From Somniosus microcephalus (lineage: Eukaryota), in contig CM126205.1 in assembly GCA_052327205.1 (NCBI GenBank), forward strand, positions 280,984,001-281,048,000: a stretch of 64,000 nt of DNA, written 5' to 3'. A program made the position numbers and the translations under genes. The number at the start of each line of letters is the position of its first letter. Position 1 is the first letter of the stretch. Positions 12,601 to 64,000 of this stretch are shown here, in pieces. A model generated the notes under the pieces. It did no database searches and was not told the DNA's origin. It worked only from the letters and a program-made list of their open reading frames with translations.

Positions 12601-12724
12601 GGGCGGAGTCGGAGGTGGTCAGCCCAGGTATAACAGTGCGACAAGAGGCGACCTCGTGTAGTGATGTGACAGTGAGAACAGTGAGAACAATATACAGTGA
12701 TAACTATAACAGTGGTTTACCACA
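9697..12724 (-). mobile_element. Gypsy LTR retrotransposon, gag-protease deleted (same family as 41744-46427)
   Basis: TG...CA ends; TSD TCCCC (9692-9696, 12725-12729); 3' LTR 9697-9976; 5' LTR remnant 12454-12724; PPT at 9977-9989. Confidence 0.93.
10019..12453 (-). pseudogene. Gypsy pol remnant (RT-RNase H-integrase), open but lacking gag and protease
   Basis: 743-aa ORF with FSTIDLKSAYHQ, YLDN, ESDAS, HHCC zinc finger and DDE; fused to the LTR at approx. 12454. Confidence 0.88.
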
Positions 12725-18921: not shown

Positions 18922-20232
18922 ATTATGTTTTCCCTGAACAATTTTTGTAATGTTGAGAAAATATGAATATTATGGACGATCCTTGTCATATTGGCTAGTT
19001 TGAATTGAAAAAAGCACTAACTTTAAGTATATCATAAAACATTGGACATAATAAACTTAAAAGAACCAATATTTTTCATCTAGATTTACTTTAGATCTAC
19101 ACCTAATTATTTGTAACTGGGATGGATATTGGAAATCTGTATTTGCAAAGTATTGTACTTGCTTTTGGCTTCTAATTAAAAGTACAAAATATAACTTAAC
19201 ACAGTGTGCCATTTATCACAGGTTTTATATATGTACTGTAGTGTCCTGAAACACTAGACAATTGTTCAAGTCTTGTTCTATTTCATCAAGCAACATTGAC
19301 CAGCTAGTACCACATGCTTCAGAAAGGGAGGGGTGTGGAAGAGAGAGATAAGCAGAGTTTCGTTGAGGTTAACTTGGTTCGAAGGTGACAAGCCTGGGAA
19401 AGGGAGATTGCAAATAAATGTATTCTATGTGGCAGACACAGGTACACAATACCCGAGGCATGCAGGTTCACAGTATTACAGGATGCAGTTGTTGATTGCC
19501 CAACCAACCTGGCTTAATAATGAGACCTGGAGAGGTAAACTTGTCACTGAAAGCTGGGATCCTTTCCACTTGGCTCCAGATAACCATGCAAGGCAACAGA
19601 TAGGGTGGCCCTAGCTGGACAAACTGAAGGAAGCTTACCAATGTTCTGTGCTGCTAAGATGTGTGGGTTTAACTGGTTAAACTGCAGCATTATTAAGCAT
19701 ACACTGGGGTTTCCTTAAGCCTTGGCTCTTGCCAATCTGCACTTAAGTGCTCTGGATTTGGTAATTGTAGCGTGTTCCTATGGGAAGAAAGTGCATATTC
19801 TATTTCAGGCAAATGAAAACTCGACTTTCTGGATTTCTCAGTTGTTTGAATTGGAAACAATTAAACACTTGGGCCTAGAAATTCAGTATCGCCACGTTTG
19901 GAGCGCTACAGCCGGGCGTTCGCTAAATTTAGCACCCGGCGCAACTTAGCACCACCTCCGTCGAAATTGAGTTGCATCGCCCCAAGATGTTGCTGCTGTG
20001 CTAAAGAAGGCGGTGCACGACTATCATAAGGCTCTAACCCGGCGAGCCGAGGCGCTACCACTGAGGGCAGGTGCAGCGCAGGTGCGGCGAGTTATCGATT
20101 GCAGGCAGACACGCTGGCACCGGTCTGCTCTTAAAGGGGGAGGGTCGATTTGGTTTGCAGCCACGCCCTGCACACTGGAGCCCTGATTCTAAGCCTGGAC
20201 AGACCTGCTTCGACAACTCTACGCCCACAACC

Positions 20233-22300: not shown

Positions 22301-22314
22301 GAGGTGTGGCAAAA

Positions 22315-22437
22315 TGTTATGTTTGTTTTTCTGAAGGCCAAGGATGTTGTGTTTGTTTTTTCGGAAGGCCGAGGATGTTGTGTTTGTTTTTCTGAAGGCC
22401 GAGGATGTTGTTTTAGTTTTTTATGAAGGCCGAGGAT
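22315..22437 (+). repeat. Approx. 30-bp tandem repeat, 4 copies, between the convergent Harbinger genes
   Basis: Unit tgttgtgtttgtttttctgaaggccgagga; a single related unit in H3 near 37930-37955. Confidence 0.85.
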
Positions 22438-22698
22438 CATGGTCATTTTTGTTTTACTGTTTTGTTCATTGTCTCCAGGTTGTGAGAGCCAGTTATGTGT
22501 CTGACTGTTTTTTGGGGGGTTTCTCTGTATTTGTTTGTCATGCCAGATGGGCCCAGAGTTTGTTAAATAAAAAATTGTCTTTATTCAGATTGTGCATGCT
22601 TACACTTTGGACTATTTGTTGCCTTGACCACCTCAGGGTTTGCGGAGCGGCTCCATTCATGTTCTTTCAATGGCACAAGCCATTCCCTGAGAGGGGGC

Positions 22699-23368
22699 CT
22701 AGAACCGACTTGCAATAAGCCGCCAACGGACGGCCCTTGCACTTTGTGCCTCCCTCCCGTCTTGGTGCTCCTCCTCCTCCTCTGGTGGTGCTCCAATGTC
22801 TGCTGGCAGTGGCTGAGTCCTGAGGATAGCCAGGTTGTGCAGCATGCAGCACACTACAACGAAATAGGAGACTCGCTCAGGCGAGTACTGTAAGGCTCCC
22901 CCGGAATGGTCCAGACAGCGGAACCGTTGCTTCAGCACGCCGATCGTGTGCTCAATGATGTTCCTGGTCGCTTGATGGCTGTCATTGTATCGTTCTTCAG
23001 CAGGGGTGGTGGGCACACGGAGCGGGGTCATCAGCCAGGTGCACAAAGGATAGCCCTTGTCCCCGAGAAGCCAGCCTCCTGGGTGAGCCGGGGCTTCAAA
23101 AATGTCTGCCACAGAAGTCTGGCGCAGGATGAAGGCGTCGTGGCTGCTGCCTGGAAAGCGGGCATTGACAGCTAGTATGAGCTGCCTGTGGTCACACACC
23201 AACTGCACGTTGCGGTAATCCTCGGCATTCTCTAGAGGCGCCCGCAAAGCCACATGTGTGCAGTCACTGGCACCCTGGACCATGGGGAAGCCCGCTATTC
23301 TTGCAAATCCCATTGCATGCTCTTGCTGCTTGTCCAGGGTCATGGGGAAGGAAATTTACTGACGTCTC
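22699..23368 (-). pseudogene. Harbinger transposase C-terminal part (copy A), cut by the Gypsy LTR
   Basis: GASDCTHV, GDKGYPL, NIIEHTIG; lacks RKGFHSLN relative to H3. Confidence 0.88.
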
Positions 23369-26300
23369 TGTGATAAATCCAGAGAGTGGAACAAGGGACT
23401 CAAAGAGGCTAGATGTTAGAATTAACACGAGTACTTTATTTACAACTGGGAAACACATTTACAGACAGTCTGCATCAGCCTCCTGGCATTCCACCTTGTG
23501 CCGACCTATACAGGAAGCAAACCTCTGACCTTAGCAGCAGCATTGGCTACAGCACCACCTGGTGGATAACCTTAATCATAACATCCCAGATTACTATATC
23601 CCTCCCCCCTTAAGATTTCAGTATGAATTTCTTAACAAACAACCATTCCTGAGGGTCACATAAGGAGTCTCCATTCATCATGTTCCATACTTGACGAATC
23701 TAACAGTTCAGTATCAATCTCTCTGGTGGCTTGCAAGTCCTTCGTGAATGTCTAATAGTAAAGTCCCTGCTTGTTTGTGGTGAAGCCACCAGCTGCTCCT
23801 GAGCAGTGCTCAGAGTATCTGACTCTGCAATGATGGTTTCCTCTTGACGGATAGGTTCCTGTGGAATTATCTCTGTCCCTGGTGGTGGCACCACAGATGC
23901 ACTTGGATAACTGGGGGCAACCCTGTCTTCAGTCATTGCATCTGGAACCTTCATTTCAATTTCCCCTTGTCTGGGAAGTATCTGATGTAAATGTCTGCGT
24001 ACTACCCTACCATCTCCCAACATGACCTAGTATGATACTGGACCTGTCATTGAGTCTATGAAGCCAGGAATCCACTTTGGTCTATAACTGAAATTCCTGG
24101 TAAGGATCGCATCTCCTTCTCCAAAACTTCGGCTCTTTGTTCTTTTGTCATGGTTCTCTTTTTGTTTGTTTTGTCTGTTTTCCATTTTCCTTTTTAGGTC
24201 TGGGTGGACAAGGTCAAGAGTGGAGCGTAGTCTACGACCTAATAACATCTCAGCAGGAGAGAGCCTGTGGTGGATTGAGGTGTTATTCTATAGCTGAACA
24301 GAACCCGTGACACTTTGGCTGCTAAACTCCCTTCTGCACTTTTTTTCATCATCTCCTTAAATGTTTGTACGGCTCTCCATTCGAGGACGGATGATATGGA
24401 GCTGAGGTCACCTGCACTATGCCATTTTTTCTCAAGAACTCTTTAGTCTCTGTACTCAAAAAACAAGTGGCATTGTCATTCACCACGATCTCCGGTAGCC
24501 CTTGATTACTGAAGCTCCGACGCAGGCAGTCTATAGTAGTAGTGGCGGATGCAGAATTTACAGGATAAACATCCATCCATTTGGAATGTGTATCAATGAT
24601 TATGAGGAACATCTTCCCCATGAATGGACCCACATAATCTAAGTGCAATCTTCTCCATGGTTTATCCGGCCACTCCCAGGGGTGGAGAGGAGCTGCTGCT
24701 GGTGCCTTCCAGTGTTCCTGACAAGTGCTGCATGTCTTGACTAGATTTTCTATCTCCTCATCTAGCTTTGGCCACCACAAGTAACTCCTAGCCAAGGCTT
24801 TCATACGCGAGACCCCAGGATGACACTGATGTAGTTGCTCTAGGATAGACTGTTGTGCTGGCTGTGGAATAATCACTCGTGCTCCCCACAACATGCAACC
24901 ATCCTGCACACTCAGTTCTGTTTTCCTGACACTGTAGAGTGTGAAGTCAGCCCCTTCCGGATGCTGTGGCCATCCCCTCACCATATATTCTCGAACTCTA
25001 GACAGTACTGGATCTTTACCTGTCCATGTTCTTACTTGCTCTGCACTCACAAGTGCCGTGTCAATGTCCTCCAACACCAAAACTCTGTCCTCTGGAGCTG
25101 CACGGATAGGTGTGCCTGGCAGTGGAAGACAGCTCAAGGCATCTGCGTTCCCATGGTACTTGCCCGCCTTGTAGAAGATGACATACTCATATGCCCTCAA
25201 CGTCCGGGGTGACAACATCTGTGGAACTGCTTTCATTTCGTTGAAAAGAGAGAGAAGAGGTTTATGATCGGTGCATATGGTGAACTTCCTGCCATATATG
25301 TACTTGTGGAACCTCTGTAACCCAAACATTACTGCTACCCCCTCTTTGTCTAACTGGGAATCGCTTTTTTCCGCAGGTGTTAAGAGTTCGGGACATAAAC
25401 CCTATTGGTCTTTCAGTTCCATCTTCCATGCAGTGTGAAAGAACTGCCCCCACCCCGTAAGGTGAAGCGTCACAAGAGAGAATGATGTCTTTCTCTGCAT
25501 TGTAGTGAACCAGCACATCCGACGACAGCATCAGTTTCTTGGACTGTTCGAATGAAACAACCTGCTCCTCTCCCCACTGCCACTGTGTCTCCTTGCGCAA
25601 TAGTTTGTGAAGAGGTGCTAACACAGTTGACAAGTTTGGTAAAAACCTGTTATAATAGTTCAGCAGTCCCAGGTAAGCTTTTAACTCAGCCACATTTGTA
25701 GGAGCAGGGGCGTCCTGCAGTGCTTGTACCTTCTCCTTGACTGGATGGAGCCCGGTGGCGTCCACTCTGTGTCCCAGGAACACTGCCTCATTCCCCAGGA
25801 AAGTGCACTTACTCCTCTTGAGCCGGAACCCTGCCCTCTCCAATCTCTGTAGTACCTCTCTCAGAGTGCTCAGATGCTCCTGGTCGGTTCTTCCCGTCAC
25901 CAGAATGTCATCCAGATAGATGGAAACATGTGGAATCCCTTGCAGTACACCTTCGATTGTCCTCTGGAAGATAGCTGGACTAGATGAGGCACCAAACGGT
26001 AAGCGGTTATATGTAAACAAGCCCTTGTGTGTATTTATGATGACATACTTCTTTGATTCGTCATCCAGTGTAATCTGCAAGTAGGCATGACTCATATCCA
26101 ACTTTGTGAATTTCTTTCCTCCAGCCAGGTTTGCAAAGAGATCCTCTGTTTTGGGAATAGGATACTGCTCTAGTTTGGACACCCGATTGACAGTCAATTT
26201 ATAGTCTCCACAGAGTCTTACCGAATTGTCCGGTTTAAAACAGGTACTATGGGAGCTGCCCATTCCGAACATTTCACCAGCTCCAGTATGTTCTCTCTCA

Positions 26301-27037
26301 ATAGACGGTGAAGCTCAGCCGCTACCTTTGGCTTCATGGCATAAGGCACAGGTCGTTGTTTAAAAAACCTTGGCGGTGCCTCCTTGTCTACATAAATCTT
26401 AGCTGGGGGGCCATTAAATGTGCCAAGTTCCTCCTTGAACACACTCTCATGTTCACTCAACACTTCTTGCAAAGTCAACTGTTTGCCTGCATCTATTTGA
26501 TGTACTGCTCCCCAGTCTAATTTAAGTTATTTTATCCAGCCCCGACCTAACAGGTTTGGTCCGGTACCCGATACTATAACTACAGTAGCTGTTCCACGGT
26601 GTCCCTGTGTTGCACAGTTACCTTAGCTGTACCTAATGTCGCTACTCATTCACCTGTATATGTTTTAAGATGCAGGGAGCAAGGCTTTAACTCTGGAACT
26701 TTTGCACGGTTGCACAATTTTGAGTACTCTGCCTTGTTCATTATGGTCACGCCGCACCCTGTATCCACTTCAAAGTTCACCTTAGAGTCATTTACTGTCA
26801 GTTGCAATGTGATAGGGGCCACTTTTGGAATGTTCTCTAACATGCTATACATTATGAACATGTGCTCTTCTCCCTCAGCTTCCCCGCTGATGTGGTGTGC
26901 TCCATGTTTTTTCACTTCTCTCCCTTGGTTTTGCTGTCCTCCCCCTTTTGGTTTGGATTCCTCCACAGGTGATTTCGCCCTGCAAGCTCATTTTATGTGT
27001 CCTTGTTTCCCACACTTGTAGCACTTTTCCTCCAGAA
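23369..27037 (-). mobile_element. Gypsy LTR retrotransposon of Mag type, decayed and 5'-truncated
   Basis: 3' LTR 23369-23598; PPT 23599-23610; fragments CYKCGKQGH, FEVDTG, RLCGDYKLTVN, YLDD, CDASPYG, integrase HPGVSRMK; frameshifts; no 5' LTR. Confidence 0.88.
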
Positions 27038-27673
27038 GCTGGCAGTGGCTGAGTCCTGAGAATAGCCAGGTTGTGCAGCATGCAGCACACTACAACGAAA
27101 TGGGAGACTCGCTCAGGCGAGTACTGAAGGGCTCCCCGGAATGGTCCAGACAGCGGAACCGTTGCTTTAGCACACCGCTATTCTTGCAAATCCCATTGCG
27201 CGCTCCTGCTGCTTGTCCAGGGTCATGGGGTAGGAAATGTACTGATGTCTCCTTTTGAAGAGGGCATTTGTGACTTGGCGGATGCAGCAATGCACCGCGA
27301 ACTGGGAGACATTGGCAATGTCCCCAATAGCGGATTGGAAGGAGCCGGTGGCATCGAAGTTGAGAGCCACTGTCACCTTCACTACCACCGACAGAGACGT
27401 CCTGCTTCTCAGCTGAGGCTGCAGATTTCTCTGAAGCAGGTGGCAGATCTCAGTGACCACCTCCCTTCTGAATCGAAGCCTCCGAATGCACTGCTCCTCA
27501 GACATGTTGAGGTAGGAAAAGTGCTGGCGGTATACCCTGGGAGGGTAAGGCCTCCTGTGCCGACGCCTGTTGGCCCTTCTCCGTCTGGCCATGATTGGCA
27601 CTTTCTCTCGGCGTCTCTGAGCCCTTTCAATGCAATGCAGAAACCCAACGTTTCCACCCATTGCAGCCCCCAT
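27038..27673 (-). pseudogene. Harbinger transposase (copy B): N-terminus plus internally deleted C-terminal piece
   Basis: MGAAMGG...RPYPPRVYR...SEEQCIRRLRF; 27038-27177 repeats 22802-22941 and 27178-27251 repeats 23295-23368, with substitutions. Confidence 0.85.
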
Positions 27674-28989
27674 TATATGTGGCCACTCAAGGCTATGGCA
27701 CTGAAAAATCAATCCAACTGCAAAGCTCTGGCCTGAAGCCAGAAGTACCTGTGCGAGCGCTGAGTCAAAGCAGAAAGCTCTCTCCCTTTGTCTCTTTCCA
27801 AATCTCTCTCTCACGCAGAAGGAGTGGTTCAAAATGGCTACCACAAAGAATGCAGAAAGTGTCCCCTTTAAATAGCGCCCCCCCAGTCCCACAGCGACTG
27901 GGAACCGTTCCACTCAACCAGTCGCTGCGAGCGCCAGGCGGAAAGGGGGGCACCACTGAAGTTCCGGTTCGGGGCGTACCAAGGGCGTTGCACCATGAAA
28001 TGACGTCAGGATCTGCGCGCGCAGCTGAGCGGGCGTTGCGGTTTTGCGCCGCCGCTAAATCTTCACTCAAGTTCGCGAGAGGCGCAGATCGCGCTGCGCC
28101 CAGGCGCTAGCCACTTCGCGCCCCACTTATCGCCCTCTTAAGGTGCTAACGGCTGGCGCTACCAACTGAATTTCTAGGCCATGGGTTTTTATGTCTATCT
28201 GATCAAAAAGACCAAGCAACATGAAATAAACATTGAAAAAGATTCAGACTATCAAGGTACATGTCTAATTTAATTTTAATTGGATTAGCCTTTTGGTTGG
28301 GTGCCTATTATGCGGCTGCTAATTTCCCTATATTAGCAATGAACATTGAATGCGATTCAGAAGTTGTCTGTTACAGGTACAGTTGTCAAATATATATTTA
28401 CTAGCAGAATGTCTGTGGCATTTGCTCATGGTAAGTTAAATCATAGGATGTTTTATAACAAGCATATTATACCATGTTTCCATAGTGCAGCTGTGTTTAC
28501 CTTAGCCAGTTCCTTCAAGGCTACAACATATAATTACTGCAAATAGGCAAAATTTGAGGAAAACTGCTTTTGCTGAGTGAAGTATGCACTCATAATTTTG
28601 CCATACTTAGCTCACAGAGTAACTCACCTCTCAAGATTAGAACACTGAATTGATTGCATTAACACTAGATTGATAACTGAATTCAATTGCTGCACATCTG
28701 GAAATAAATGCCATACTGTGATTATTCCTCTTTTGGTTTAGAATAATAGTGCAAAACTATGTTAATCGCACATGAACTCATGATGAGATTATTCCAATCA
28801 TTACAGGTGTTACAAAATATTATTTTTTACTGTCTATTTAAGAAATTTGTTTACTACTAGGCACAATTTTCATGTTACACTAAACAATTCTCATGATGTG
28901 AATGATGTAACAATTTTAGTACGCTGAAATTAGTTTAATGTTTTTCCTTGAATACTACACTTTTCCTTATTATACATTAACAGACATAT

Positions 28990-29581
28990 GCCTTTGTTAC
29001 CTCTAGACTTGACTATTCTAATGCACTCCTGGCTGGCCTCCTACATTCTACCCTACATAAACTTGAGGTAATCCAAAACTTGGCTGCCCGTGTCCTAACT
29101 CGCACCAAGTCCCATTCGCCCATCTCCTCTGTGCTCGCTGACCTACACTGGCTCCTGGTTAAGCAGCACATCGATTTCAAAATTCTCATCCTTGTTTTCA
29201 AATCCCTCCACGGCCTCGCCCCTCCCTATCTCTGTAATCTCCGTCAACCCCACAACCCCCCGAGATATCTGCACTCCTCTAATTCTGCCCTTTTGAGCAT
29301 CCCTGATTATAATTGCTCAACTTTTGGTGGCTGTGCTTTCTGTTGCCTAGGCCCTAAGCTCTGGAATTCCCGGCCTAAACCTCTCCGCCTCGCTACCTCT
29401 CTTTCCTCCTTTAAGACGCTCCTTAAAACCTACCTCTTTGACCAAGCTTTTGGTCACCTGCCCTAATTTATCCTTATGTGGCTCGGTGTCAAATTCTTTG
29501 TCTTATAATACTCCTCTGCAGTGCCTTGGGACGTTTTACTACGTTAAAGGCACTATATAAATACAAGTTGTTGTTGTTGTT
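28990..29581 (+). mobile_element. L2 LINE 3' end
   Basis: VTSRLDYSNALLAGL...LHWLLVKQHIDFKIL...APPYL...FKTLLKTYLF; tail ctatataaatacaa(GTT)n. Confidence 0.88.
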
Positions 29582-30825
29582 ATTAGCCCACATTGTGTGG
29601 TGTGGTTAAATAGACAATTTGATTTCAACTCCTTATATTAACTAAATATCACCCCACGTGTGAATGCACACACATTCAGCGAGCCAACAGAGACACAATG
29701 AGCTAAATTAACTCTTTCTGTGCTGTAAAATTCTATGATTTCACAAAAAAAGTGGAAAGAATGAATGAGTGAGTAGCAAAATAACATTATCTTAGTTTGG
29801 AAGGAAAATTAAATGCAAGAACAAATTAAGACAAGACTAGGAGGAAAAGAAAGAGTAATAAAAATAATGTGGTCACAAATAATTTGCTAATTTGCTTTAT
29901 AAATTGGGTGATGTGTGTCTTTCATTAAACCTACTGAGATCTTGCAAACAGTATTGAAGCAACCCTTAACCAAATCACTGTTTGGATTTGTGGTGCCTGA
30001 GTAAAAGATTCATTGAAGTCAAGAATCATTTGTGAGTTCCTCCCCTAAACCCTTTCTCATGCATCAATGTTTTTTGTTAAGGTTTGCATAGTCTTCAAAA
30101 TCCTCTGTTAATTTGTATCACAATGATCTGCCCACTTGCTATTAATCTTTTCAGAATTTTGTACAAGTTTTCCTAAATTAGGTCATTGTTATTCTTATGC
30201 ACAACACTAATTCTAAATAAAAACTACAAAAGGATAGATGATCCTTGTCAGACTGGCATGCAAAAAACTGTCTGCATTTGATTCACTAGATTCTTAACTA
30301 GCTATCTATATTACAAAGTATAGTGTTGCTCCCAAACATACTTCTGGCAATGGATTGTTCAAAAAAGGAATTGAACTGTTATCTCAAATCTATAAACTTA
30401 TCAGCAGCTTTTCAGATTTCTGATAAGTGTATTGAATGCAGGAGACATAATAAGCATAAAAGGTATTTTTTTAGTTCAACTTAATAGGTGTACTGTATTT
30501 CTACAGTGAAAAAGTAATAAAAAATTCTGTTACTTTTTCATTAAACTTTAATCCTTTGCAATTGTGCATGTATTCCAAGGGTCACACAATAATATGTATA
30601 CAAAATTTAAATACTACAGAAGTTTTAATTTTGTTTTGACTACTGTTAAGAAAACCAGAAGAGCTAAATATGAAGTTAGTTTGGTGTTGACATGACAGCT
30701 TAATGAATATGCTGTGGCTTGGCTCACTTTACAACAACATACACTTATATAGCAACTTTAGCAGACTAAAATGTCCCAAGGTACTTCAAAAGGCAGAAAA
30801 TAACTGGAGACCAAGAAATTGAGGA

Positions 30826-30917
30826 AAACAAAAGCAAAATACTGTAGATGCTGGAAATCTGAAATAAAAACAGAAAATGCTGGAAATACTCAGCCAGTCA
30901 GGCAATATCTGTGGAAA
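30826..30917 (-). mobile_element. Penelope pLTR fragment
   Basis: Reverse complement of the 3105-3161 pLTR sequence plus its continuation. Confidence 0.6.
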
Positions 30918-31287
30918 GACGAAAGGGAAGTTCTGCTACAACTGTACAGGATATTGGTGAGACTACACCTTGAGTACTGTGTACAGTTTTGGTCTCCTTA
31001 TTTAAGGAAGGATATACTTGCATTGGAGGCAGTTCAGAGACGATTCACTAGGTTAATTCCAGAGATGAGGGGTTTGACTTATGAGGAAAGGTTGAGCAAG
31101 CTGGGCCTATACTCATTGGAATTTAGAAGAATGAGAGGTGATCTTATTGAAACATATAAGATACTGAGAGGGCACGACAAGTTGATGCAGAGAGGATGTT
31201 TACCCTCGTGGGGAAATCTAGAACGTGGGGGCACAGTTTTAGAATAAAGGGTCGCCCTTATAGAACTGAGATGAGGAGGAATTTCTC
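30918..31287 (+). mobile_element. CR1 LINE fragment
   Basis: EVLLQLYRILVRLHLEYCVQFWSPYLRKD...RRMRGDLIETYK. Confidence 0.85.
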
Positions 31288-32009
31288 AAGTGTTCCAGGT
31301 GTGGGTGCAAGATATTTGGAGTGGAACTCAATGGGGAGGCTTGTCCCCTTTCATGGCGATGACACTGGAATAGCTGGGTATGGCATGATGACATTAGGCG
31401 TCCCACAATGCAGCACTTACACATCAGTTGACATCAACACCCTTAATGAATCAAGCATACATTGGACGCTAGGATTAAGTCCTGGCTGAAGTGGGCCCTG
31501 CAGTTTTTATAGTGTTGGTTTTCTTGTGGCAATCAGATGCAGATTGGTCAATTGCCACTTTTTATAGTATAATATTTAAATTCTGGGCCTTTGGGGACTT
31601 CTTTAAACTTCATTTGACATGCTACCTCATAGACTATGACAAGGCACTGTGGTGATTTTCTTCCACCTTCCTGGCCCAGTCAGGCTGGATGCCATAATTG
31701 TGCCAAAATGGCATGATCACTTGCCCAACATATGTAAATTCACTGATGCCAGGATTTCAGATAGGGGTCAACATCAGAACCAGACAGAGAGAAGTCCCAG
31801 GGAACTACCTGGAGTTTCAGGGTTCATATCTATGAATAGTAATATAGAAGTTTAATCCCATGCATTTACCAACTATTTTGTATTAGTTTAAAATTGCTCA
31901 GCTCTAAATCACTTTGCCCTAATTCTATTGTGGTGATTAAATGGACCAATTGAAGACGTTCACAAAACAACAAATGATGCAATTTTTCATTTCTTGGTTC
32001 ACTACTTAC

Positions 32010-41743: not shown

Positions 41744-44700
41744 TTATGCCTATCAATTCATCCAATGAAAAGCGACGAGTTAAGAAAGTAACTATAGGTT
41801 TTTATTGGCTAAATAACAGAGCCCACCCTCGTGGGTGATCGGATCCAACAAGGAGGAATACCAGCCAGTCGACCACCTTTATACCTGGGCAGGTAGGTGG
41901 AGCCATGGGCGGAGTCAGCAGTGGTCAACCCAGGTATAACAGCGTGACAAGAGGCGACCTCGTATAGTGATACAACAGTGTGAACAGTGATAACCATAGA
42001 GTAACGATATAACAGTGATAACTATAGTGTAACGATAGTGAACGACAAAAGTGGTTTACCACATTCACCCCTTGTTTAGATTTGAGTCCGGCGGGGTGAT
42101 GTGTACTACCAGTTCTGGTATGTCAGTCTGTCCGGAGGCCTCGTAAGCCTTTCCGATCGTCGCAGCGGCGGTGTTGCATTCTCCGGTGGTGATGCTGGTG
42201 TCTGCGTGGTCGGCGAGGGCTCGTGGGGTTCCGGCATGCCGTCTACCTGAGCTGGAATCGGGGGGGGGGGGGGTGGGGGGGGTGAAGGTGGTGTCTCCGG
42301 AATGCTCGAGGGTGCGAGGTCTCGCAAGGAGACTGTGTCCTCCCGCCCGTCTGGGTATGCCACATAGGCGTACTGAGGGTTGGCGTGCAGGAGGTTCACC
42401 CTCTCGACCAGGGGGTCCGTTTTATGGGCCCTCACGTGCTTTCGCAGCAGGACGGACCCCGGAGAGGTCAGCCAGGTTGGTAGTGTGGTTCCCGTAGTCG
42501 ACTTCCTGGGGAAAACAAACATTCGTTCATGGGGGGTGGCGTTAATGGCAGTGCAGAGTAGTGACCGGATGGAATGCAGCGCTGCCGGGAGGACTTCCTG
42601 CCAGCGGGAGGTTGGGAGGCCCTTAGACTTTAAGGCTAAGAGGACGGCCTTCCATACAGTCGCGTTCTCTCTTTCCACCTGGCCGTTCCCTCGAGGGTTG
42701 TAGCTGGTGGTCCTGCTTGCAGCAATACCTCTTGCTAGTAGGAACTGGCGGAGTTCCTCGCTCATGACGGAGGAGCCCCGGTCACTATGTATATAGTTTG
42801 GGAACCCGAACAAGGCGAAGAGGTCGTTCAGGCATTTAATGACCGTGGTACTGGTCATGTCTGGGCAGGGGAAGGCGAAGGGGAAGCGGGAGTACTCATC
42901 AACAATGTTGAGGAAGTACACATTACGGTCAGAGGACAGGAGGGGCCCCTTAAAATCGATGCTCAAGCGCTCGAAGGGGCGGGTGGCCTTGATCAGGCTT
43001 GCTCTGTCCGGCCTAAAGAAATGCGGTTTGCACTCGGCACAGGTCTGGCAGTTCCTGGTCATGGTCCTGACCTCCTCGATGGAGTAGGGCAGGTTGCGGG
43101 CCTGAATGAAGTGGTAAAGTCTGGTGACTCCGGGGTGGCAGAGGTCGTTGTGGAGGGTCTGAAGTCTATCAATTTGCGCGTTGGCGCATGTAATTCGTGA
43201 TAGAGCATCAGGGGGTTCGTTCAGCTTACCTGGCCGGTACAAGATATCATAATCATAGGTGGAGAGTTCGATTCTCCACCTCAAGATCTTGTCGTTCTTG
43301 ATTTTACCCCTCAGCTTGTTATTAAACATAAAAGCGACCGAACGCTGGTCGGTGAGGAGGGTAAATCGTTTGCCTGCCAGGTAGTGCCTCCAGCATCGTA
43401 CAGCCTCCACAATCGCCTGGGCCTCCTTCTCGACCGACGAGTGTCGGATCTCAGGGCCCTGTAGGGTCCTTGAGAAGAAGGCCACCGGTCTCCCCTCCTG
43501 GTTAAGGGTAGCGGCTAGGGCGAAGTCGGATGCATCGCTCTCCACTTGGAAGGGGATGGACTCATCCACCGCGTGCATTGTGGCCTTAGCAATGTCTCCC
43601 TTAATGAGGGAGAAGGCAGCGCATGCTTCCTCCGTAAGGGGGAAGGATGTGGACTTCATGAGGGGTCTGGCTTTGTCCGCATAATTGGGCACCCATTGGG
43701 CATAGTAGGCGAAGAGCCCCAGGGTTCTCTTCAGCGCCTTTGGGCAGTGGGGGAGGGGTAACTCCATGAGGGGGCGCATTCTTTCGGGGTCGGGGCCGAT
43801 GAGTCCGTCCTCTACTACGCAGCCGAGGATGGCAAGGCGTGAGGTGTTAAACACACATTTCTCCTTATTGTAGGTGAGGTTCAGCCGTTGGGCCGTACGG
43901 AGGAATCTCTCTAGATTAACATCATGGTCCTGCCGGTCGCGGCCGCAGATGGTGACGTTATCTAGATAGGGGAACGTGGCGTGCAGCCCATTCTGGTCAA
44001 CCATCCGGTCCATCTCCCTTTGGAAGACCGAAACCCCGTTGGTGACGCCGAAGGGAACCCTAAGGAAGTGGTAGAGGCGGCCATTCGCCTCGAAGGCGGT
44101 ATACTGGCGGTCCTCAGGGCGGATAGGGAGTTGGTGGTAGGCCGACTTAAGGTCGATGGTAGAGAATACTCGGTATTGTGCAATCTGATTGACCATATCA
44201 GATATGCGGGGAAGGGGGTATGCGTCCAGCTGGGTGTACCGGTTTATGGTCTGGCTGTAGTCGATGACCAGGCGGTTTTTATTGCCGGTCTTAACGACCA
44301 CGACCTGGGCACGCCAGGGGCTGCTCTTCCCCTCAATGATGCCCTCCTTCAGGAGACGCTGCACCTCAGAGCTAATGAAGGCTCTGTCCCCGGCGCTGTA
44401 CCGCCTGCTCTTGGTAGCGACGGGTTTGCAGTCGGGGGTGAGGTTAGCGAACAGGGAAGGTCGCGGGACCTTGAGGGTGGATAGGCCGCAGGTGTTACGC
44501 GGTGGGCGGTTTAAAGGCTGCTGGTTGTCGACTGTGAGTGGGGGGAGGGGTCCGCCGTATGCTAGAGTGACGCTTTGGAGGTGGGATTGGAAGTCCAGCC
44601 CTAGTAGGACGGCAGCGCAGAGCTGGGGGAGGACGAGGAGTTTAAAATTTTTATACTCCGTGCCCTTAACCGACAGGGTCACGACACAGTAGCCGCTGAT

Positions 44701-46427
44701 GTCTGTGGCGTGGGACCTCGATGCCATCGAGATCCGGTTGCGCGTTGGCCGGACAGTGAGGGAGGTGTGGCTCACCGTGTCTGGGTGGATGAAACTCTCC
44801 GTGCTTCCGCTGTCGAACAGGCAGGTCGTGGCGCGGCCGTTTACTTTGATGTCCATCATGGACTTGGACAGGTGGTGCGGGCGGGCTTGGTCCAGTGTGA
44901 CGGAGGCTAGTGTGTGGCTCAGCGAGCTGCTGTAGTCTGCGGGTGAGGCGGTGGTCGAGTCCGGAGGCGAAGTGGCGGTCGAGCGTGGAGGGTGAAATGG
45001 CAGCGCCCACGAGGTTGGACAAAATGGCGGAGAAGATGGCTGCCCCCACAACTCACATGAGGCACTGCTGGTGTCGGTTGCCTGGATCAAAGATGGCCGC
45101 CCCCATGACTCACACGTGGGGATACTGGCATCTGTGGCCTTGATGGAAGATGGCCGCCCCCACAACTCGCATGAGGCACTGCTGGCCTCTTTTGATCTCT
45201 GTTGGCCTCTGCAGGCCTTAGCAAAGTGGCCTTTCTTCAGGCAGCTTGAGCACGTCGCGTTTCTCGCTGGGCAGCGCGCCCTAGTATGTTTCGCCTGGCC
45301 GCAGAAGAAGCAGCCAGCGGCCCGATCGCGGGGGTCCGAAGTCGCAGCCGGTACCGGGGGTGGCGGTCCCGATCGGGTCCGGGATGCCGACGCAGAGGTA
45401 GGTCCCAGGGGCGGCGCTGCGAGGGGTATCGCAGTCGGGGTCGGTCCCGAGTCCCAGGGTCGCAAATTACTGTACCTGGAGTACGCCTCGAGGTCCCGAT
45501 GGGCCACTTCTAGGGAGCGAGCGAGGGCTGCAGCTGTGTTCAGGTCAAGGTCCTTTGCTTCAAGAGGTCTTTGCCGTGTGTAGTCGGACCGCAGGCCTTT
45601 CACGAAGGCATCGCGGACATTATCTTCAGTATTTTCTGCCGCTGATACCGCTTTAAAGTCACAGTCCCTGCCGAGTGCTTGTAGCGCCCGTAAAAATTCA
45701 TCTACCGACTCTCCTGGCTGTTGCGGGCGGGATCTTAGGAGGTGTCTGGCAAACATGGAGTTTACCGGGCTCCGGTACTGTTGTTTCAGCAGGTTGATGG
45801 CGGCTTCGTATGTTTTAAGGTCCCGGATGAGTGCGAATACTTTAGGGCTCACTTGGGCGGTCAGAACCCTTAGCATGGATTTCTGAGGCACGCCGGATTC
45901 TCCCAGGTAGGATTCGAAACAGCTCAGCCAGTGTTCGAAGTCGAGGGCTGAGTTTGCTGCCTGTGGGTTTAGATCCAGGTACGGTGGTCGGAGGGCTCGC
46001 AGCCAGGCTGGCTGCTGTGGCTGTTGTAGCTGGGCGTCTGGCTGGTCGCTTGGCTGGTCGTTTGACTGCTCAAGTGTCGACATTTTAAAATTTAGCCAAT
46101 AAAATTGATATACCTATCAATTCATCCAATGAGAAGCGACGAGTTAAGAAAGTAACTATAGGTTTTTATTGGCTAAATAACAGAGCCCACCCTCGTGGGT
46201 GATCGGATCCAACAAGGAGGAATACCAGCCAGTCGACCACCTTTATACCTGGGCAGGTAGGTGGAGCCATGGGCGGAGTCAGCAGTGGTCAGCCCAGGTA
46301 TAACAGCGTGACAAGAGGCGACCTCGTATAGTGATACAACAGTGTGAACAGTGATAACCATAGAGTAACGATATAACAGTGATAACTATAGTGTAACGAT
46401 AGTGAACGACAAAAGTGGTTTACCACA
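41744..46427 (-). mobile_element. Full-length young Gypsy LTR retrotransposon
   Basis: 5' LTR 46106-46427 (TG..CA); 3' LTR approx. 41745-42063, about 3 substitutions between LTRs; PPT 42064-42076; left junction has lost the terminal bases and the TSD. Confidence 0.95.
42106..46083 (-). CDS. Single-frame Gag-Pol polyprotein, 1325 aa, intact
   Basis: Two zinc knuckles (CFFCGQAKHTRARC, CSSCLKKGHFAKAC), protease LFDSGS, RT (IDLKSAYHQ, YLDN), RNase H (ESDAS), integrase HHCC and DDE, in Gypsy order. Confidence 0.95.
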   Translation of the reverse strand: MSTLEQSNDQPSDQPDAQLQQPQQPAWLRALRPPYLDLNPQAANSALDFEHWLSCFESYLGESGVPQKSMLRVLTAQVSPKVFALIRDLKTYEAAINLLKQQYRSPVNSMFARHLLRSRPQQPGESVDEFLRALQALGRDCDFKAVSAAENTEDNVRDAFVKGLRSDYTRQRPLEAKDLDLNTAAALARSLEVAHRDLEAYSRYSNLRPWDSGPTPTAIPLAAPPLGPTSASASRTRSGPPPPVPAATSDPRDRAAGCFFCGQAKHTRARCPARNATCSSCLKKGHFAKACRGQQRSKEASSASCELWGRPSSIKATDASIPTCESWGRPSLIQATDTSSASCELWGQPSSPPFCPTSWALPFHPPRSTATSPPDSTTASPADYSSSLSHTLASVTLDQARPHHLSKSMMDIKVNGRATTCLFDSGSTESFIHPDTVSHTSLTVRPTRNRISMASRSHATDISGYCVVTLSVKGTEYKNFKLLVLPQLCAAVLLGLDFQSHLQSVTLAYGGPLPPLTVDNQQPLNRPPRNTCGLSTLKVPRPSLFANLTPDCKPVATKSRRYSAGDRAFISSEVQRLLKEGIIEGKSSPWRAQVVVVKTGNKNRLVIDYSQTINRYTQLDAYPLPRISDMVNQIAQYRVFSTIDLKSAYHQLPIRPEDRQYTAFEANGRLYHFLRVPFGVTNGVSVFQREMDRMVDQNGLHATFPYLDNVTICGRDRQDHDVNLERFLRTAQRLNLTYNKEKCVFNTSRLAILGCVVEDGLIGPDPERMRPLMELPLPHCPKALKRTLGLFAYYAQWVPNYADKARPLMKSTSFPLTEEACAAFSLIKGDIAKATMHAVDESIPFQVESDASDFALAATLNQEGRPVAFFSRTLQGPEIRHSSVEKEAQAIVEAVRCWRHYLAGKRFTLLTDQRSVAFMFNNKLRGKIKNDKILRWRIELSTYDYDILYRPGKLNEPPDALSRITCANAQIDRLQTLHNDLCHPGVTRLYHFIQARNLPYSIEEVRTMTRNCQTCAECKPHFFRPDRASLIKATRPFERLSIDFKGPLLSSDRNVYFLNIVDEYSRFPFAFPCPDMTSTTVIKCLNDLFALFGFPNYIHSDRGSSVMSEELRQFLLARGIAASRTTSYNPRGNGQVERENATVWKAVLLALKSKGLPTSRWQEVLPAALHSIRSLLCTAINATPHERMFVFPRKSTTGTTLPTWLTSPGSVLLRKHVRAHKTDPLVERVNLLHANPQYAYVAYPDGREDTVSLRDLAPSSIPETPPSPPPPPPPPIPAQVDGMPEPHEPSPTTQTPASPPENATPPLRRSERLTRPPDRLTYQNW

Positions 46428-57675: not shown

Positions 57676-58542
57676 ACTGGTATTAATCTTCCAGAATTCC
57701 CTAGATTCTAGAACAGTCCCCAAGGATTGGAAGGTAGCAAACATAACCCCGCTATTTAAGAAAGGAAGAAGAGAAAAATGGGGAACTATAGGTCAGTTAG
57801 CCTGATTTCAGTAGTAGGCAAAATGCTAGAATCTATTATTAGGGACGTGGTAACAGGGCACTTAGAAAATCATAACATGATTAGGCAGAGTCAACATACT
57901 TTTATGAAAGGGAAATCGTGTTTGACAATCTGTTAAGAGTTTTTTGAAGATGTAACTAGTAGGATGGATAAGGGGGAACCAGTGGATGTAGTGTATATGG
58001 ATTTTCAAAAAGTATTCGATAAGGTGCCACGCAAGAGGTTATTACACAAAATTAGGGCTCATGGTATTGGGGGTAATATATTCGCATGGATTGATGATTG
58101 GTTAATAGACAGAAAACAGAGAGTAGGAATAAACAGGGCTTTTTCAGGTTGGCAGGCTGTAACTAGCGGGGTACCGCAAGGATCAGTGCTTGGGCCTCGG
58201 TTCTGGACATTTTACATGCAGATAGCACCCTCTGGTGGTAGCTATTGTATAGCAGTGATGTTCTGGACTGATGAGCCATTTTATATGCAGATAGCACCCT
58301 CTGGTGGTGGTTATCGTGTTAGCAGTTTGTATGAAGCAGAGGTCATTTGACCTTTCTACCTTTCTTCCTGTGAGAGGTCATTTGACCTCTCTACCTTTCT
58401 TCCTGTGTGACTCAGGAAGCAGAATCCCAGGAAGTAGAATTCCAGGAAGAACCTGACTTGAGTAATGGAGAATCTGCCATGAGGTGTTCCATTCACAATC
58501 CAATGTAATCTGATTTCATATGTTAGGCCAAGCGCAATATCT

Positions 58543-58767
58543 GTGAGTATCTTTGTTTGTTAGCATAATAGCAACGTTGTCAGAGTAGTATTTTGATAAC
58601 ACTATGTTTATAAAAGGTTAATATTTGATAGTTACAGAAGTTAGTCCAAATGTTAGTTAGTTATACAATTAATCTATTCTACTGTTGTAAATATGTTTAT
58701 ATCTTATGTAATATCGAATGTATAGTACTCAGTTTATGTACAAAACATACTTTGTCTTTGTTTACAG
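58543..58767 (+). other. Predicted 225-bp GT-AG intron inside the BEL LTR (second copy 63576-63800)
   Basis: Consensus donor GTGAGT, AT-rich body, pyrimidine tract ctttgtctttgtttacAG. Confidence 0.65.
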
Positions 58768-58887
58768 TTTCACAAATTTGTTCAAGTAAAGCTTCAAAAC
58801 AGCAAACGGCTTCACGAGGAATTACTTTGAATAAGTGTTTAACTTGCTGGATAACTAGATAGGAGCACATCTAGTGCGGCCAGTAAA

Positions 58888-58938
58888 GTGAAAAGATAAA
58901 GTGAAAAGATATCAGTGAAAAGATAAAGTGAAAAGATA
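58888..58938 (+). repeat. Four tandem copies of GTGAAAAGATA at the primer-binding-site position of the BEL element
   Basis: Copies start at 58888, 58901, 58915, 58928. Confidence 0.92.
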
Positions 58939-59022
58939 GCAATACGGCTAGCTGTGAAGAGCGGAGCAGGAGGAACCCAGTGTAAGCCTTAACCTCGTAG
59001 AGCACACCTACCTCACATCAAC

Positions 59023-62000
59023 ATGTCAGAAGATAATAACGAAAATGCTTTGCAGCGAGGAGAAGACCCTAAATGGGCAGACGAAACTGTAGAAGGTGAC
59101 AATCGGTCTATAAGCTCCGGTTACGTCAGATCGCAAGCTGGTTCACGGTCATCAGGTGGTTCTAGAGTAAGCGTGACCATCGCCAGAGCACGGGCTAAGC
59201 TAGTGGCAGCTCAAGCCAGAGCTGCGCATGCGAACAGTGAAATAGAGATAAAAGTAAGACAGGCCCGTCTCCAAGCTGAATTCCAAGCCGAACAGGCCCG
59301 ACTCCAAGCTGAATCACAAGCCGAACAGGCCCGACTCCAAGCCGAACAGCCCCGACTCCAAGCTGAATTCGAAGCCGAACAGGTCAGTCACCAAGTTGAA
59401 CGCCAGGCTGAACAGGCCCGTCACCAAGTTGAACGCCAGGCTGAACAGGCCCATCTCCAAGCCACATTAGACGCGCTGCAGCAACAAAAAGAGATAGATA
59501 CTGCATTAGCCGAGACACAAGTATTTGAGGCAATTTTGGAGGGAGCTGATCCCGAGACAGCTTACAAACCTTTAATTCCCATTTCGTGGCAGAGTCCACG
59601 ACAGCGTACCATAGATTACGTGAGCGACCATGCCGACATACAGTTTACAGGAGAAAGGGATGGAGGCCCACACATCTCTACAGACGCAAGCACTTCGTAT
59701 AACATGCCCCAAGTTGCCAACCAAGGTCAAAGTAGACAGCGTGCCTCAAGCCGCAGAGTCTCCCCTAGCAGAACGGAAGACACGGTGCAGAGGAATAGGA
59801 CGCTGAATAGAGAAAGTCAGAGGCAAATCCCCTCTCGGTTCCTTGAGACCCCCAACAGAGCCCCTAGCCAAGGCAACCCTGGCACAGGTCCCAGCACCTA
59901 CGACCTTGCCAAATACCTTGCACGCACCCAGCTGGTGACTTCGGGGTTAATTAAGTTTGATGACAGGCCGGAGAATTATCGGGCTTGGAAGTTCTGCTTC
60001 CACAATGCCATATCGAGCTTAGACCTGTCGGCAGGAGAAGAGCTCGGCCTCCTTATCAAATGGCTAGGCCTGCAGGATAAAAGCGGCCAATGTGGGACAG
60101 CTGCCAGAGGGGTTGAAGAAGGCTTGGGTGAGGCTGGAAGAAAGCTACGGCTCGCCCGAAGCCATTGAAAGGGCTCTCTTTGACAGGTTGGAGAACTTTC
60201 CGAGGTTGACGAGTAAGGAACCCCAGAAGCTCCGCGACCTTGGAGATCTGCTGTCGGAACTCGAAGCCGCAAAGCAGGACAGCTACCTACCCGGTCTATT
60301 GTACTTAGACACTTCCAGAGGAGTAAGTCCCATCATTGAGAAGCTTCCATTTAACCTGCAGGAGAAGTGGATAACGTTTGGATCAAAGTTCAAGCTAAAG
60401 CACAACGTGGCGTTCCCACCATTCTCTGCGTTCGTTAAATTCATCCGTAAAGAAGCCAAAGCCAGGAACGACCCCAGCTTCAACTTCTTCTCCTCCCACC
60501 CAGCACTTGCCAGAAGAGACAAGTTCGACAGACATGGAAGGACACCAATATCTGTCCACAAAATGCAAGTGTCCTCAACTGAGCACACAAAGATTCAGAA
60601 GAAAACTGAGGATATGAGCAAACAATGCCCTATCCACAACAAGCCTCATCCTTTAAAGAAGTGCAGAGGCTTCAGGGAGATGTCCCTGGAAGATCGGAAA
60701 CAATACCTCAAAGAGAACTCTATATGTTTCAAGTGCTGCTCTTCCACGAGCCATCTCGCCAAGAACTGCAAGGTAGATGCAAAATGCACTGAATGTGAAA
60801 GTGATCGGCACATTTCAGCACTCCACCCAGGCCCAGCTCCTTGGAAGTCAGAGTCGCCTCCTCCCGCCTCAGAGCACGGCGGGGAGAGTGAGGGAGCTGC
60901 TGGTCCGGAGATTACATCCAAGTGCACCGAGGTGTGTGGAGAAGGAGTGAGCGCAAGAGCATGCTCCAAGATACGCTTCGTTAATGTGTACCCTGCAGGA
61001 TGTCGCCAGGAATCTGAAAAGATGTATGCCATACTAGATGAATAAAGCAATCGTTCTCTAGCAAGATCCGAGTTCTTCAACATCTTCAAGGTCAAAGGAA
61101 GTCCGTCGCCTTACACGCTGAAGACGTGTGCTGGACTTTCAGAGACAGCCGGCAGGAGGGCCTGCGGTTACGTTGTTGAGTCAGCTGACGGGAAGATTAG
61201 TCTCCCCCTTCCTACACTCATCAAATGTAATCAAGTCCCTGACAACCGTTCTGAGATTCCCACTCCGAATGCAGCTCGTCATCACCGTCATCTGAGATGC
61301 ATTGCAGACGAGATCCCACCTCTTGATCCAGATGCAAGCATACTTCTGTTGTTGGGAAGAGACATCCTGAGGGTACATAAGATAAGGGAAGAGATCAACG
61401 GTCCACATGACGCCCCTTTCGCCCAAAGGCTAGACCTCGGCTGGGTCGTTGTTGGAGATGTGTGCCTCAAGGGCGCTCACAAGTCATCTCAGGTGAGCAC
61501 ACTCAGGACTTCCATCTTGGAGAATGGTCGTCCAAGCTACCTTACCCCATGCAGTAATCAGATCCAAGTGACAGAGAAGTTCAGTCATACGGCTCAGCCT
61601 CAGAAAACCCCAGCGCTGATCTCCGCAGACAGCACACAGATGATGCTCACTGGAGAGAACCCGGGTCAGTCAGTCTTCTGTCGCACTGCCAACGACCACA
61701 AACTTGCTCCATCGATCGACGACATGAGGTTCCTCCAGATTATGGACAATGAGGTCTCTCGTGACAGCTCTAACAGCTGGGTTGCACCCTTACCCTTCCG
61801 GAACCCCAGACAACGGCTGCCGAACAACAGGGGGTATGCCTATAATCGTCTTAACTCACTCCGTCGCACACTGGAGAAGAAGCCAGAGATGAAAGCGCAC
61901 TTCCTAGAATTTGTCAAGAAAATGCTTGTCAACGATCATGCAGAGATCGCTCCGCCACTCCAGGAAGGCCAAGAGTGTTGGTACCTCCCTTCCTTCGGAG

Positions 62001-63189
62001 TCTATCACCCCAAAAAGCCGGAACAGATCCGCGTGGTGTTTGACTCCAGTGCACCATATCAGGGAGTCTCTCTCAATGATGTACTCCTCACAGGGCCCGA
62101 TCTTAACAACAGCCTCTTGGGAGTGCTCATGAGATTCAGGAAAGAGCCCGTCGCCATCACTGCCGATATCCAGCACATGTTTCATTGCTTCGTGGTGAGA
62201 GAAGACCACAGAGACTTCCTTCGCTTCCTGTGGAATCGGGACAATGACCCCAATAGAGACATTGTGGACTACAGAATGCGTGTCCATGTCTTTGGGAATA
62301 GCCCATCCCCTGCTGTCGCCATATACGGACTAAGGAGGGCTGCCAAGGAAGACGACGACTTTGGCAGTGATGTGAGAGGGTTCATCGAACGAGAGTTCTA
62401 TGTCGACGACGCACTGAAGTCATTCCCGACCGAAGCAGAGGCCATCGGTACCCTCGGACGAGCCCAGGAACTACTTGCACTATCCAACCTCAGGCTGCAT
62501 AAGATAGCCTCTAACAGACCAGCAGTGATGGAGGCATTCCCCCCTGAAGATCGTGCTAAGGACGTCAAGGACCTAGACCTCTTCACTGATGACCTCCCCC
62601 TACAGCGTAGCCTAGGGGTGTCGTGGAACATAGCAACAGACACGTTCACGTTCCAAGTCTTAGACGTCAAGAAACCCTTCACACGTAGAGGAGTGCTCTC
62701 TACAGTCAACAGCCTATACGACCCTCTCGGCTTCTTAGCCCCTGTCACAATACAAGGCAGGCTGCTCCTCAGGGAACTCTCCACACGCGCTGAAGAGTGG
62801 GATTCACCTCTCCCTGAAGAGATGGAAGCAGAGTGGGACAGATGGAGAGACTCACTCCAAGACTTACAGGAGATCCGAATACCTCACTGCTATTCATCTT
62901 TCTCTCCCTTAAATACCCAATTCAAAGAGCTTTGTGTCTTTGCAGACGCATCCGCTAAGGCCATTGCAAGTGTGGCTTATCTGAAGGTCACCACTCAAGA
63001 TGGACAAAGCAAAATTGGCTTCGTCTTTGATAGAGGCAAGTTGGCGCCCCAGCCAGACCTCACCATACCCAAATTGGAACTGCGCGTAGCAGAACGCAGG
63101 CTACGGAAGCTGCATCCTATCGTCGACACCAACGGACTGTCTCTGAGATGGTTCTTCTTTTGTCGCCAGAGGACTCTAGTGACAAGTAG
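59023..63189 (+). pseudogene. BEL gag-pol, disrupted
   Basis: KFDDRPENY; triple Cys-His array (CPIH..H....C, CFKC....H....C, CTEC...H...LH); protease YAILDE*S; WYLPSFGVYHPKKP..IRVVFDSSA; FYVDD; VFADAS; TIPKLEL; frameshift near 60070; TAA at 61043; integrase reduced to fragments. Confidence 0.9.
59260..59461 (+). repeat. Approx. 33-bp coding repeat (EQARLQAE...) in BEL gag
   Basis: About six imperfect units gccgaacaggcccgactccaagctgaa... Confidence 0.85.
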
Positions 63190-64000
63190 AGTTCGGACTA
63201 TGTGGAGTCGTTAACGACCCCAGACGGGGAGTGTTCTGGACATTTTACATGCAGATAGCACCCTCTGGTGGTAGCTATTGTATAGCAGTGATGTTCTGGA
63301 CTGATGAACCATTTTATATGCAGATAGCACCCTCTGGTGGTGGTTATCGTGTTAACAGTTTGTATGAAGCAGAAGTCATTTGACCTTTCTACCTTTCTTC
63401 TTGTGAGAGGTCATTTGACCTCTCTACCTTTCTTCCTGTGTGACTCAGGAAGCAGAATCCCAGGAAGTAGAATTCCAGGAAGAACCTGACTTGAGTAATG
63501 GAGAATCTGCCATGAGGGGTTCCATTCACAATCCAATGTAATCTGATTTCATATGTTAGGCCAAGCGCAATATCTGTGAGTATCTTTGTTTGTTAGCATA
63601 ATAGCAACATTGTCAGAGTAGTATTTTGATAACACTATGTTTATAAAAGGTTAATATTTGATAGTTACAGAAGTTAGTCCAAATGTTAGTTAGTTATACA
63701 ATTAATCTATTCTACTGTTGTAAATATGTTTATATCTTATGTAATATCGAATGTATAGTACTCAGTTTATGTACAAAACATACTTTGTCTTTGTTTACAG
63801 TTTCACAAATTTGTTCAAGTAAAGCTTCAAAACAGCAAACGGCTTCACGAGGAATTACTTTGAATAAGTGTTTAACTTGCTGGATAACTAGATAGGAGCA
63901 CATCTAGCGCGGCCAGTACAGCCTCAGCTATTTTCAATCTATATTAGCGACTTAGATGAAGGGACTGAATGTAACATATCCAAGTTTGCTGATGATACAA

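Follow-up and report, generated by a model that had tools for sequence, protein, structure and literature searches.

In the available portions of the literature, Tf1 is the element for which self-priming of reverse transcription has been demonstrated; predictions cover its chromovirus kin and one plant Copia lineage. In the Tf1/sushi pattern, as given in the accessible text of bioRxiv 10.1101/2022.12.06.519325 and PMC4600332, the primer is the mRNA's 5' end. Self-priming was also predicted from sequence for the lineages Tcn1 (Gypsy) and TAR (Copia) in the accessible text of PMC6317226, which carries no primer-end evidence; both are plant lineages, the former a chromovirus and the latter a Copia element.

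The window analyzed here, 64,000 nucleotides of the Somniosus microcephalus genome (GCA_052327205.1, contig CM126205.1, 280,984,001 to 281,048,000), contains a Gypsy element whose features are listed in Table 1. A Pfam scan of its ORF product gave the Ty3/Gypsy domain order (protease, RT, RNase H, integrase) and no match to a chromodomain; the protein also has two zinc knuckles. The element bears TG...CA LTRs, a polypurine tract and a short target duplication, the last being judged from the sister copy (GGGGA) and from the 5-bp duplications of the read-through insertions described below, with the right junction of the window copy itself lost. The two LTRs differ at 3 of 319 shared positions. 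A similarity search of the 6.4-Gb genome gave 1,579 candidate copies, and the best 40, which were scored, are 99-100% alike. Named homologues in Hypanus, Scyliorhinus and Narcine show 80-83% RT-RH identity. No relative turned up in viral contigs, and a protein atlas search returned generic Gag clusters.

Table 1. Features of the self-complementary Gypsy element and of its sister copy in the window.
Feature	Position	Strand	Basis or remark
Gypsy element with a single ORF	41745-46427	minus	Sequence and Pfam
5' LTR, 322 nt, TG...CA	46106-46427	minus	Sequence comparison
TATA box TATAAA	46242-46247	minus	Sequence
Putative transcription start and 5' end of the primer RNA	46215-46217, best 46216	minus	Pile-up of read-through ends 30-31 nt behind the TATA box; not RACE
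Putative self-primer, ~53 nt (38 nt unpaired with the PBS plus 15-nt arm)	46164-46216	minus
Primer arm in R	46164-46178	minus	AATAAA inside at 46170-46165; covaries with the PBS
ACCTAT, adjoining the putative primer 3' end	46158-46163	minus	May pair with ATAGGT at 46117-46112 (second helix, presumed cut site)
Imperfect second PBS copy inside U5 of both LTRs	46120-46135	minus
One-base spacer A between LTR end and PBS	46105	minus	Opposite the unpaired purine
PBS, self-complementary type, TTTTATTGGCTAAAT	46090-46104	minus	No TGG start
gag-pol single ORF, 1325 aa, PR-RT-RH-IN	42106-46083	minus
RT active-site motif YLDN (residues 706-709), replacing YxDD	43957-43968	minus
Polypurine tract ahead of the 3' LTR	42064-42077	minus	Sequence
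3' LTR	41745-42063	minus	Final 3 nt and target duplication lost; small junction deletion
Sister-subfamily copy, 5-bp target duplication GGGGA	9697-12724	minus	U5 end, PBS, gag and protease deleted

On the minus strand, the 5' LTR is followed by A (46105), the primer-binding site (PBS) TTTTATTGGCTAAAT (46104-46090), TTTAAA and the ATG at 46083. An earlier note on this DNA had reported 22 nt between LTR and start codon, no TGG-type PBS, and a PBS 15-mer pairing perfectly with an LTR segment that carries AATAAA about 63 nt past a TATAAA. The sequence bears this out in every point, with the 15-mer being the exact reverse complement of 46178-46164, the TATAAA lying at 46247-46242 and the AATAAA in the arm being the sole AATAAA/ATTAAA hexamer of the LTR. 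Judged from its letters, the PBS is not of the kind found in tRNA-primed Gypsy elements, which starts with TGG and is complementary to a tRNA 3' end. It is complementary to the element's own LTR, as in the Tf1/sushi group. An Rfam scan gave no family at threshold and just two sub-threshold matches. The note had further described the LTR 15-mer as conserved in the sister copy at 9697-12724; the 15-mer is kept there, but the 5' LTR is truncated inside U5 and fused to the region of residue 506, and since the PBS is gone this copy cannot test the pairing.

Only two other perfect inverted repeats of at least 13 nt within 420 nt occur in the window, both at 8161-8355, where arms of 13 and 17 nt lie in another repeat, presumably Penelope-like. 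The window also holds a BEL/Pao element (58200-63921, plus strand) with LTRs of ~690 nt that are 98.8% alike; the bases after its 5' LTR consist of repeated AGTGAAAAGATA units, and in the unspliced LTR nothing as long as 9 nt is complementary to them. A distant Gypsy fragment (24349-26272, minus strand) has 29% RT identity, and no LTR pair was found for it within 19000-32000.

The PBS and the LTR arm covary. In four related groups of the genome, the two middle letters of the PBS are GG, GA, AG or AA and the LTR arm matches accordingly. A genome search with the exact junction pattern returned 7,954 copies of the family group, including 3,858 with A replacing the second PBS G. In the first 30 of these A-for-G copies, the arm has the matching T in 27, is damaged in one and keeps C in two, while among 30 copies picked irrespective of PBS spelling (9 overlapping with the former set) 27 pair perfectly. 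For the AA spelling, the arm was predicted in advance and was present in 19 of 20 fetched copies. Diverged Gag queries retrieved two further families, whose pairing spans 13-15 nt and uses other letters. The copies of top similarity were too uniform (99-100% alike) to be used for covariation; both arms are perfect in 22 of the 24 listed.

The analysis was extended to a clade sample of 102 loci, comprising 77 metagenome loci with a usable gag start (of 80 found by Gag alignment), 24 shark loci and the window copy. Clustering of the first 60 Gag residues at 80% identity gave 33 clusters, and the best member of each was scored for pairing of 11-19 nt with at most one mismatch. Pairing was found in 23 of the 33 clusters, 20 of them metagenomic, with different letters; some clusters are close kin, so that the independent count is nearer 20. 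The remaining 10 clusters have fewer than 11 pairs, several being without an intact 5' end and two reaching 9-10 nt. When the PBS of one cluster was set against the LTR of another, 11 nt or more matched in 3 of 506 swapped pairs. Relatives with the pairing occur in sharks and in marine metagenomes, and at one locus (L091) a change found in both LTRs is compensated in the PBS. The compensatory changes that the earlier note had suggested looking for among family members are present.

The geometry of the pairing is equally constant. The spacer is A and the base after the arm is a purine (A or G) each in 22 of the 23 pairing clusters. Of 24 representatives, 19 can form a helix of at least 4 bp that begins right where the arm ends, a number to be compared with an expected 6.2; set against the three-duplex 'pretzel' leader of the Tf1/sushi group, this comparison covered the helix next to the arm. 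From these sequence comparisons, the conserved feature is a duplex ending one base from the LTR end, as a primer would require.

We propose the following mechanism for this element. Transcription would start ~31 nt behind the TATA box, and the arm, at nucleotides 39-53 of the transcript, would fold onto the PBS; the sequence pairing is established and the RNA fold is predicted. A cut directly after the arm (AATAAAA), between 46164 and 46163, at the unpaired purine where the second helix begins, would release a 5' piece of ~53 nt. By analogy with Tf1, the cutter is probably the element's own RNase H. Held by its last 15 nt alone, this piece would prime minus-strand DNA synthesis and stay joined to the minus strand, so that the plus strand would copy it and remake the PBS from LTR letters, keeping the pair matched. 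In the accessible text of PMC11042837, Tf1 cDNA is likewise reported to retain the primer often, copied into its 3' end. A plus strand running into the unpaired 38 nt would fail to jump at the PBS and land elsewhere, giving an inverted read-through insertion. That the element primes itself in some form appears very probable. The scheme as a whole, with own-RNA priming, a ~53-nt 5' piece, a cut after the arm, a remade PBS and misjumped read-throughs, is likely, and the primer itself is probably an RNA of ~53 nt paired by its last 15 nt.

Such read-through insertions exist. In two of 30 sister-subfamily copies, the PBS runs straight on into an inverted copy of the LTR stretch that lies upstream of the arm, and this inverted junction pattern occurs at 335 places in the genome, i.e. 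~4% of the 7,954 family junctions. The pattern demands five exact extra bases and misses shorter or mutated cases, so that the figure of 335 is incomplete. Among the 90 places examined, 66 follow a whole LTR with upstream flanking DNA, 4 follow a 3' LTR and 20 are without a whole LTR. Removal of one damaged and two duplicate loci from the 66 left 63 for scoring. The inverted stretch measures 20 nt in 1 case, 21-49 nt in 34, 50-52 nt in 5, 53-54 nt in 12, 55-60 nt in none and more in 11. The stop rate per base is 2.6% at 21-49 nt, 32% at 53-54 nt and 0.6% at 55-200 nt (binomial p 3e-10). Counting fifty-three bases back from the arm end leads to 46216. This position is 31 nt past the point at which TATAAA begins, a distance at which RNA polymerase II would be expected to initiate. 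As the TATA box stands 30-31 nt ahead of this edge at 53-54 nt, the primer probably corresponds to the first ~53 nt of the transcript. The earlier view that the transcript probably does not begin with the pairing segment gains support, with the putative start lying 38 nt upstream of it.

The onward jumps of the 52 short cases land in gag or pol (31), at the U5 end (9), on the opposite strand (3) or could not be placed (9), and the landing sites differ. Insertions that landed at the U5 end have a perfect 5-bp target duplication in 8 of 10 cases (two of the 10 being duplicates of each other), and the other two match at 4 of 5 bases, which argues that these molecules were formed before integration. 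In two related families, the read-through pattern gave 3 and 1 matches, while the junctions there, counted over three PBS spellings, number 2,784. As these four matches all end elsewhere than at a start site, the 53-nt primer is supported in one family group only.

Several other products were seen. Mini-insertions consisting of an LTR, the PBS, a partial inverted leader and a second U5 end (L244, L246, L252, L253, L257, L297, L301, L306 and L307) bear target duplications and could pass for solo LTRs. A deletion derivative present at two or more places (L187, L188) has the PBS and 2-3 inverted bases followed by the late pol region. The 20 places without a whole LTR include inversions of the loop between the arms, that is, of the R end and U5 (L324; L239 and similar cases among L231-L320). 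A smaller second pile of ends at 41 nt (L232, L233, L240, L254 and L257) lies beside a leader hairpin at 46201-46188, a possible pause site. In 10 of the 14 inversions ending at 52-54 nt the next letter is C, the outcome to be expected from copying of a cap (p 0.04); the landing site could also account for the majority of these C's, and this observation was not relied on.

If the primer were a short RNA of ~15 nt cut on both sides, the 53-nt form would be a failed minority that leaves fossils. This would suit the ~96% of family junctions that are normal and the great rarity of read-throughs in the two related families, and a 38-nt plus-strand overhang should indeed impede the second jump. We nevertheless consider a short primer unlikely, since the 35 ends at 20-49 nt are scattered whereas a sharp pile stands at the start site. 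Moreover, a second cut is without sequence support, and normal copies record no primer length either way.

The 11 of 63 insertions that pass the putative start run into U3, and several of them reach the inverted polypurine tract and integrase (L258, L270, L290 and L291). Such long cases need fold-back, template switching or a 3'-end template. The last would be at hand if the primer were the arm in the 3' copy of R, from the tail of the element's own RNA or of a co-packaged RNA, trimmed to AATAAAA; copying of a 3'-end primer would give just such passages through U3. This origin seems even less likely than a short primer, because 52 of the 63 inversions end at or before the putative start and none at 55-60 nt, and because a 3' R serving as primer would use up the acceptor of the first jump. 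Plus-strand fold-back or template switching could also account for the long class. Read-throughs could further be formed by a plus strand that ends in the PBS, re-anneals to R of a second RNA and runs to its 5' end. This route maps the same start site, but under it the insertions give no proof of a covalent primer. If the ~53-nt primer is correct, the misjumped insertions amount to primer extension carried out by nature, from which start site and primer can be mapped with no work on RNA, and read-through insertions would offer a general route to primer identity and start sites from assemblies alone.

Further evidence for copying of the primer comes from the sister subfamily, for which 888 junctions were found. 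The LTR letter is C in 30 of 30 copies examined. Of the 25 copies that include a gag start, 16 carry G in the PBS, which matches, and 9 carry A, which does not. Three gag haplotypes were distinguished and each includes copies of either kind, which argues against a single inherited mutation, as this would track one lineage. Such a split is as expected if primer-derived and template-derived strands are repeatedly sorted. Sister-subfamily read-through copies have G in 12 of 12 cases (Fisher p 0.018), and no mismatch at this site was seen in 76 readable read-through copies (14 were unreadable). A similar split of PBS letters was observed in a metagenome family group (L084). The suggestion in the earlier note that the stem supplies a self-primer is therefore well supported by covariation, inverted read-throughs and lineage-independent PBS switching.

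The earlier note had also suggested that the stem could mask the poly(A) signal in the 5' LTR alone, its partner being absent after the 3' LTR. Masking is possible in the window family: in the fold predicted from the putative start to the ATG, the 15 pairs form with probabilities of 0.56-1.0 and AATAAA is buried (z of -2.9 for a similar fold). The partner is not wholly absent after the 3' LTR, as the imperfect U5 copy (46135-46120) pairs with the AATAAA segment in the 3' LTR fold. This second copy comes closer to a perfect match in the sister subfamily and is able to form pairs with the AATAAA arm in the 5' and the 3' LTR alike. Across the clade, masking is not a conserved function; the paired segment contains AATAAA in 4 clusters, ATTAAA in 9 and neither in 10 of 23, two of the 10 having a hexamer downstream. 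Masking is at most secondary in the clade and likely a side benefit in the window family.

It is very unlikely that the stem serves to hide the signal while a tRNA fragment or another host RNA primes. The AATAAA does lie fully within the stem, with a pairing probability of 0.83-1.0 over its six bases, and a canonical hexamer is found in the arm of 13 clusters. The PBS, however, lacks a TGG start and a match to any Rfam family at threshold, and its letters vary by family and even by subfamily in step with the LTR, which a fixed host RNA could not match. The arm has no canonical signal in 10 clusters, and the stem end is always one base from the LTR end, a position relevant to priming and not to masking. 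Chance, or a by-product of palindrome correction at the DNA level, hardly deserves consideration although loop inversions between the arms exist, because none of 20,000 dinucleotide shuffles of the LTR matched the 22 post-LTR bases over 12 nt or more (longest match 11 nt or less), position and geometry are fixed across clusters, and the read-through insertions have fresh target duplications.

RNA data from two runs of a related organism were also considered. Gag depth at 45908-45941 was 433:37 and 353:111 for first-mate-plus versus first-mate-minus reads, a ratio that would indicate sense transcription provided that the libraries were made by the common stranded protocol. Among the rows listed for these two runs there was no pile of read ends at the putative start, and no start, cut or poly(A) site was resolved. 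In one run six molecules stop at 46089, and in the other 68 start at 46208; these are either too small a number or without explanation. A dip in depth over the PBS was set aside as a signal, as contigs dip nearby too.

In an unrooted RT-RH tree of 33 rows with three groups, a long branch (99/98) sets apart the window element together with its relatives from sharks and metagenomes. Another clade (100/98) is made up of five chromodomain elements from the same genome, with ~31% RT-RH identity to the window element. The comparison with Tf1/sushi that the earlier note had called for thus gave no grouping with chromoviruses, these five elements standing in for a group that the tree represents by same-genome members, without Tf1 or sushi; it is compatible with one or two origins of self-priming. 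Two rows labelled chromo (L355, L358) are neighboring clade elements, and topology alone was used. The single ORF and two zinc knuckles presumably resemble those of Mag-type elements. In the accessible text of PMC6238403 and PMC3587641, no PBS data were found for the Mag (C-clade/SURL) or Cigr-1 clades. Head-to-tail tandem arrays of clade elements with a spacing of ~4.2-4.5 kb were observed at C20:55183260-55200598 of the same genome and at L012 and L160-L161; tandem arrays are likewise described for Tf1/Tf2.

The RT motif YxDN is found in 22 of 26 proteins (P0001-P0026) and in nearly all clade loci, whereas chromoviruses have YLDD. In a PDB search, Ty3 RT was the best match. According to the accessible text of PMC5371799, the same change in Ty3 RT keeps polymerase activity in vitro, lowers processivity and is lethal for transposition. 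The YxDN family still has many copies that are 99% alike, and a mobile YxDN clade bears on the role of the second aspartate of RT. A tie between YxDN and the priming mode is speculation.

No account of priming in this clade or of its YLDN motif was found in a literature search that had subscription journals and Repbase Reports outside its coverage. Repbase entries sometimes note self-primed animal Gypsy families, and a brief prior mention there is quite possible.

We regard the chances as evenly balanced for the broadest reading, in which a widespread animal Gypsy clade outside the chromoviruses makes one cut after the poly(A) hexamer to free a capped leader of ~53 nt that primes through its last 15 nt, while the 5' poly(A) signal is concealed by the stem, every cycle rewrites the PBS from the LTR and the YxDN RT, with a change that is lethal to transposition in Ty3, may be tied to this mode. 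An abundant non-chromovirus animal clade with an internal arm would widen the self-priming mechanism, and it would presumably escape silencing by host tRNA fragments.

The poly(A) hairpin of HIV-1 is a local stem present in both LTRs; in the window Gypsy the arm pairs chiefly with the PBS, and conservation of the hexamer does not extend through the clade. Four of eight chromodomain loci of the same genome also have a short self-complementary PBS. These sushi-like elements (L358, L359, L361 and L362) likewise carry it one base after the LTR end, but they differ from the window Gypsy in forming their own clade and in having an arm of 9-11 nt on a mid-LTR GCTCAGT motif, which we take to be initiator-like, and no AATAAA. 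Two styles of self-priming are thus seen within one host genome. With Tf1 and Tf2 of Schizosaccharomyces pombe, Tj1 of S. japonicus and the Tf1/sushi chromoviruses, the window element would share a PBS complementary to its own LTR, a primer cut from the transcript, an extra helix by the duplex and a primer copied to the cDNA 3' end, as these features are given in the accessible text of bioRxiv 10.1101/2022.12.06.519325, PMC4600332, PMC5341516 and PMC11042837. In contrast to that group, it has no chromodomain and bears YLDN rather than the YLDD of the same-genome chromodomain elements, and its mRNA would not begin with the paired segment, the putative start lying upstream of the arm. Taken together, these comparisons suggest that the window Gypsy works like Tf1 and yet, by its lack of a chromodomain, its RT placement and the position of its primer, falls outside the Tf1/sushi group.
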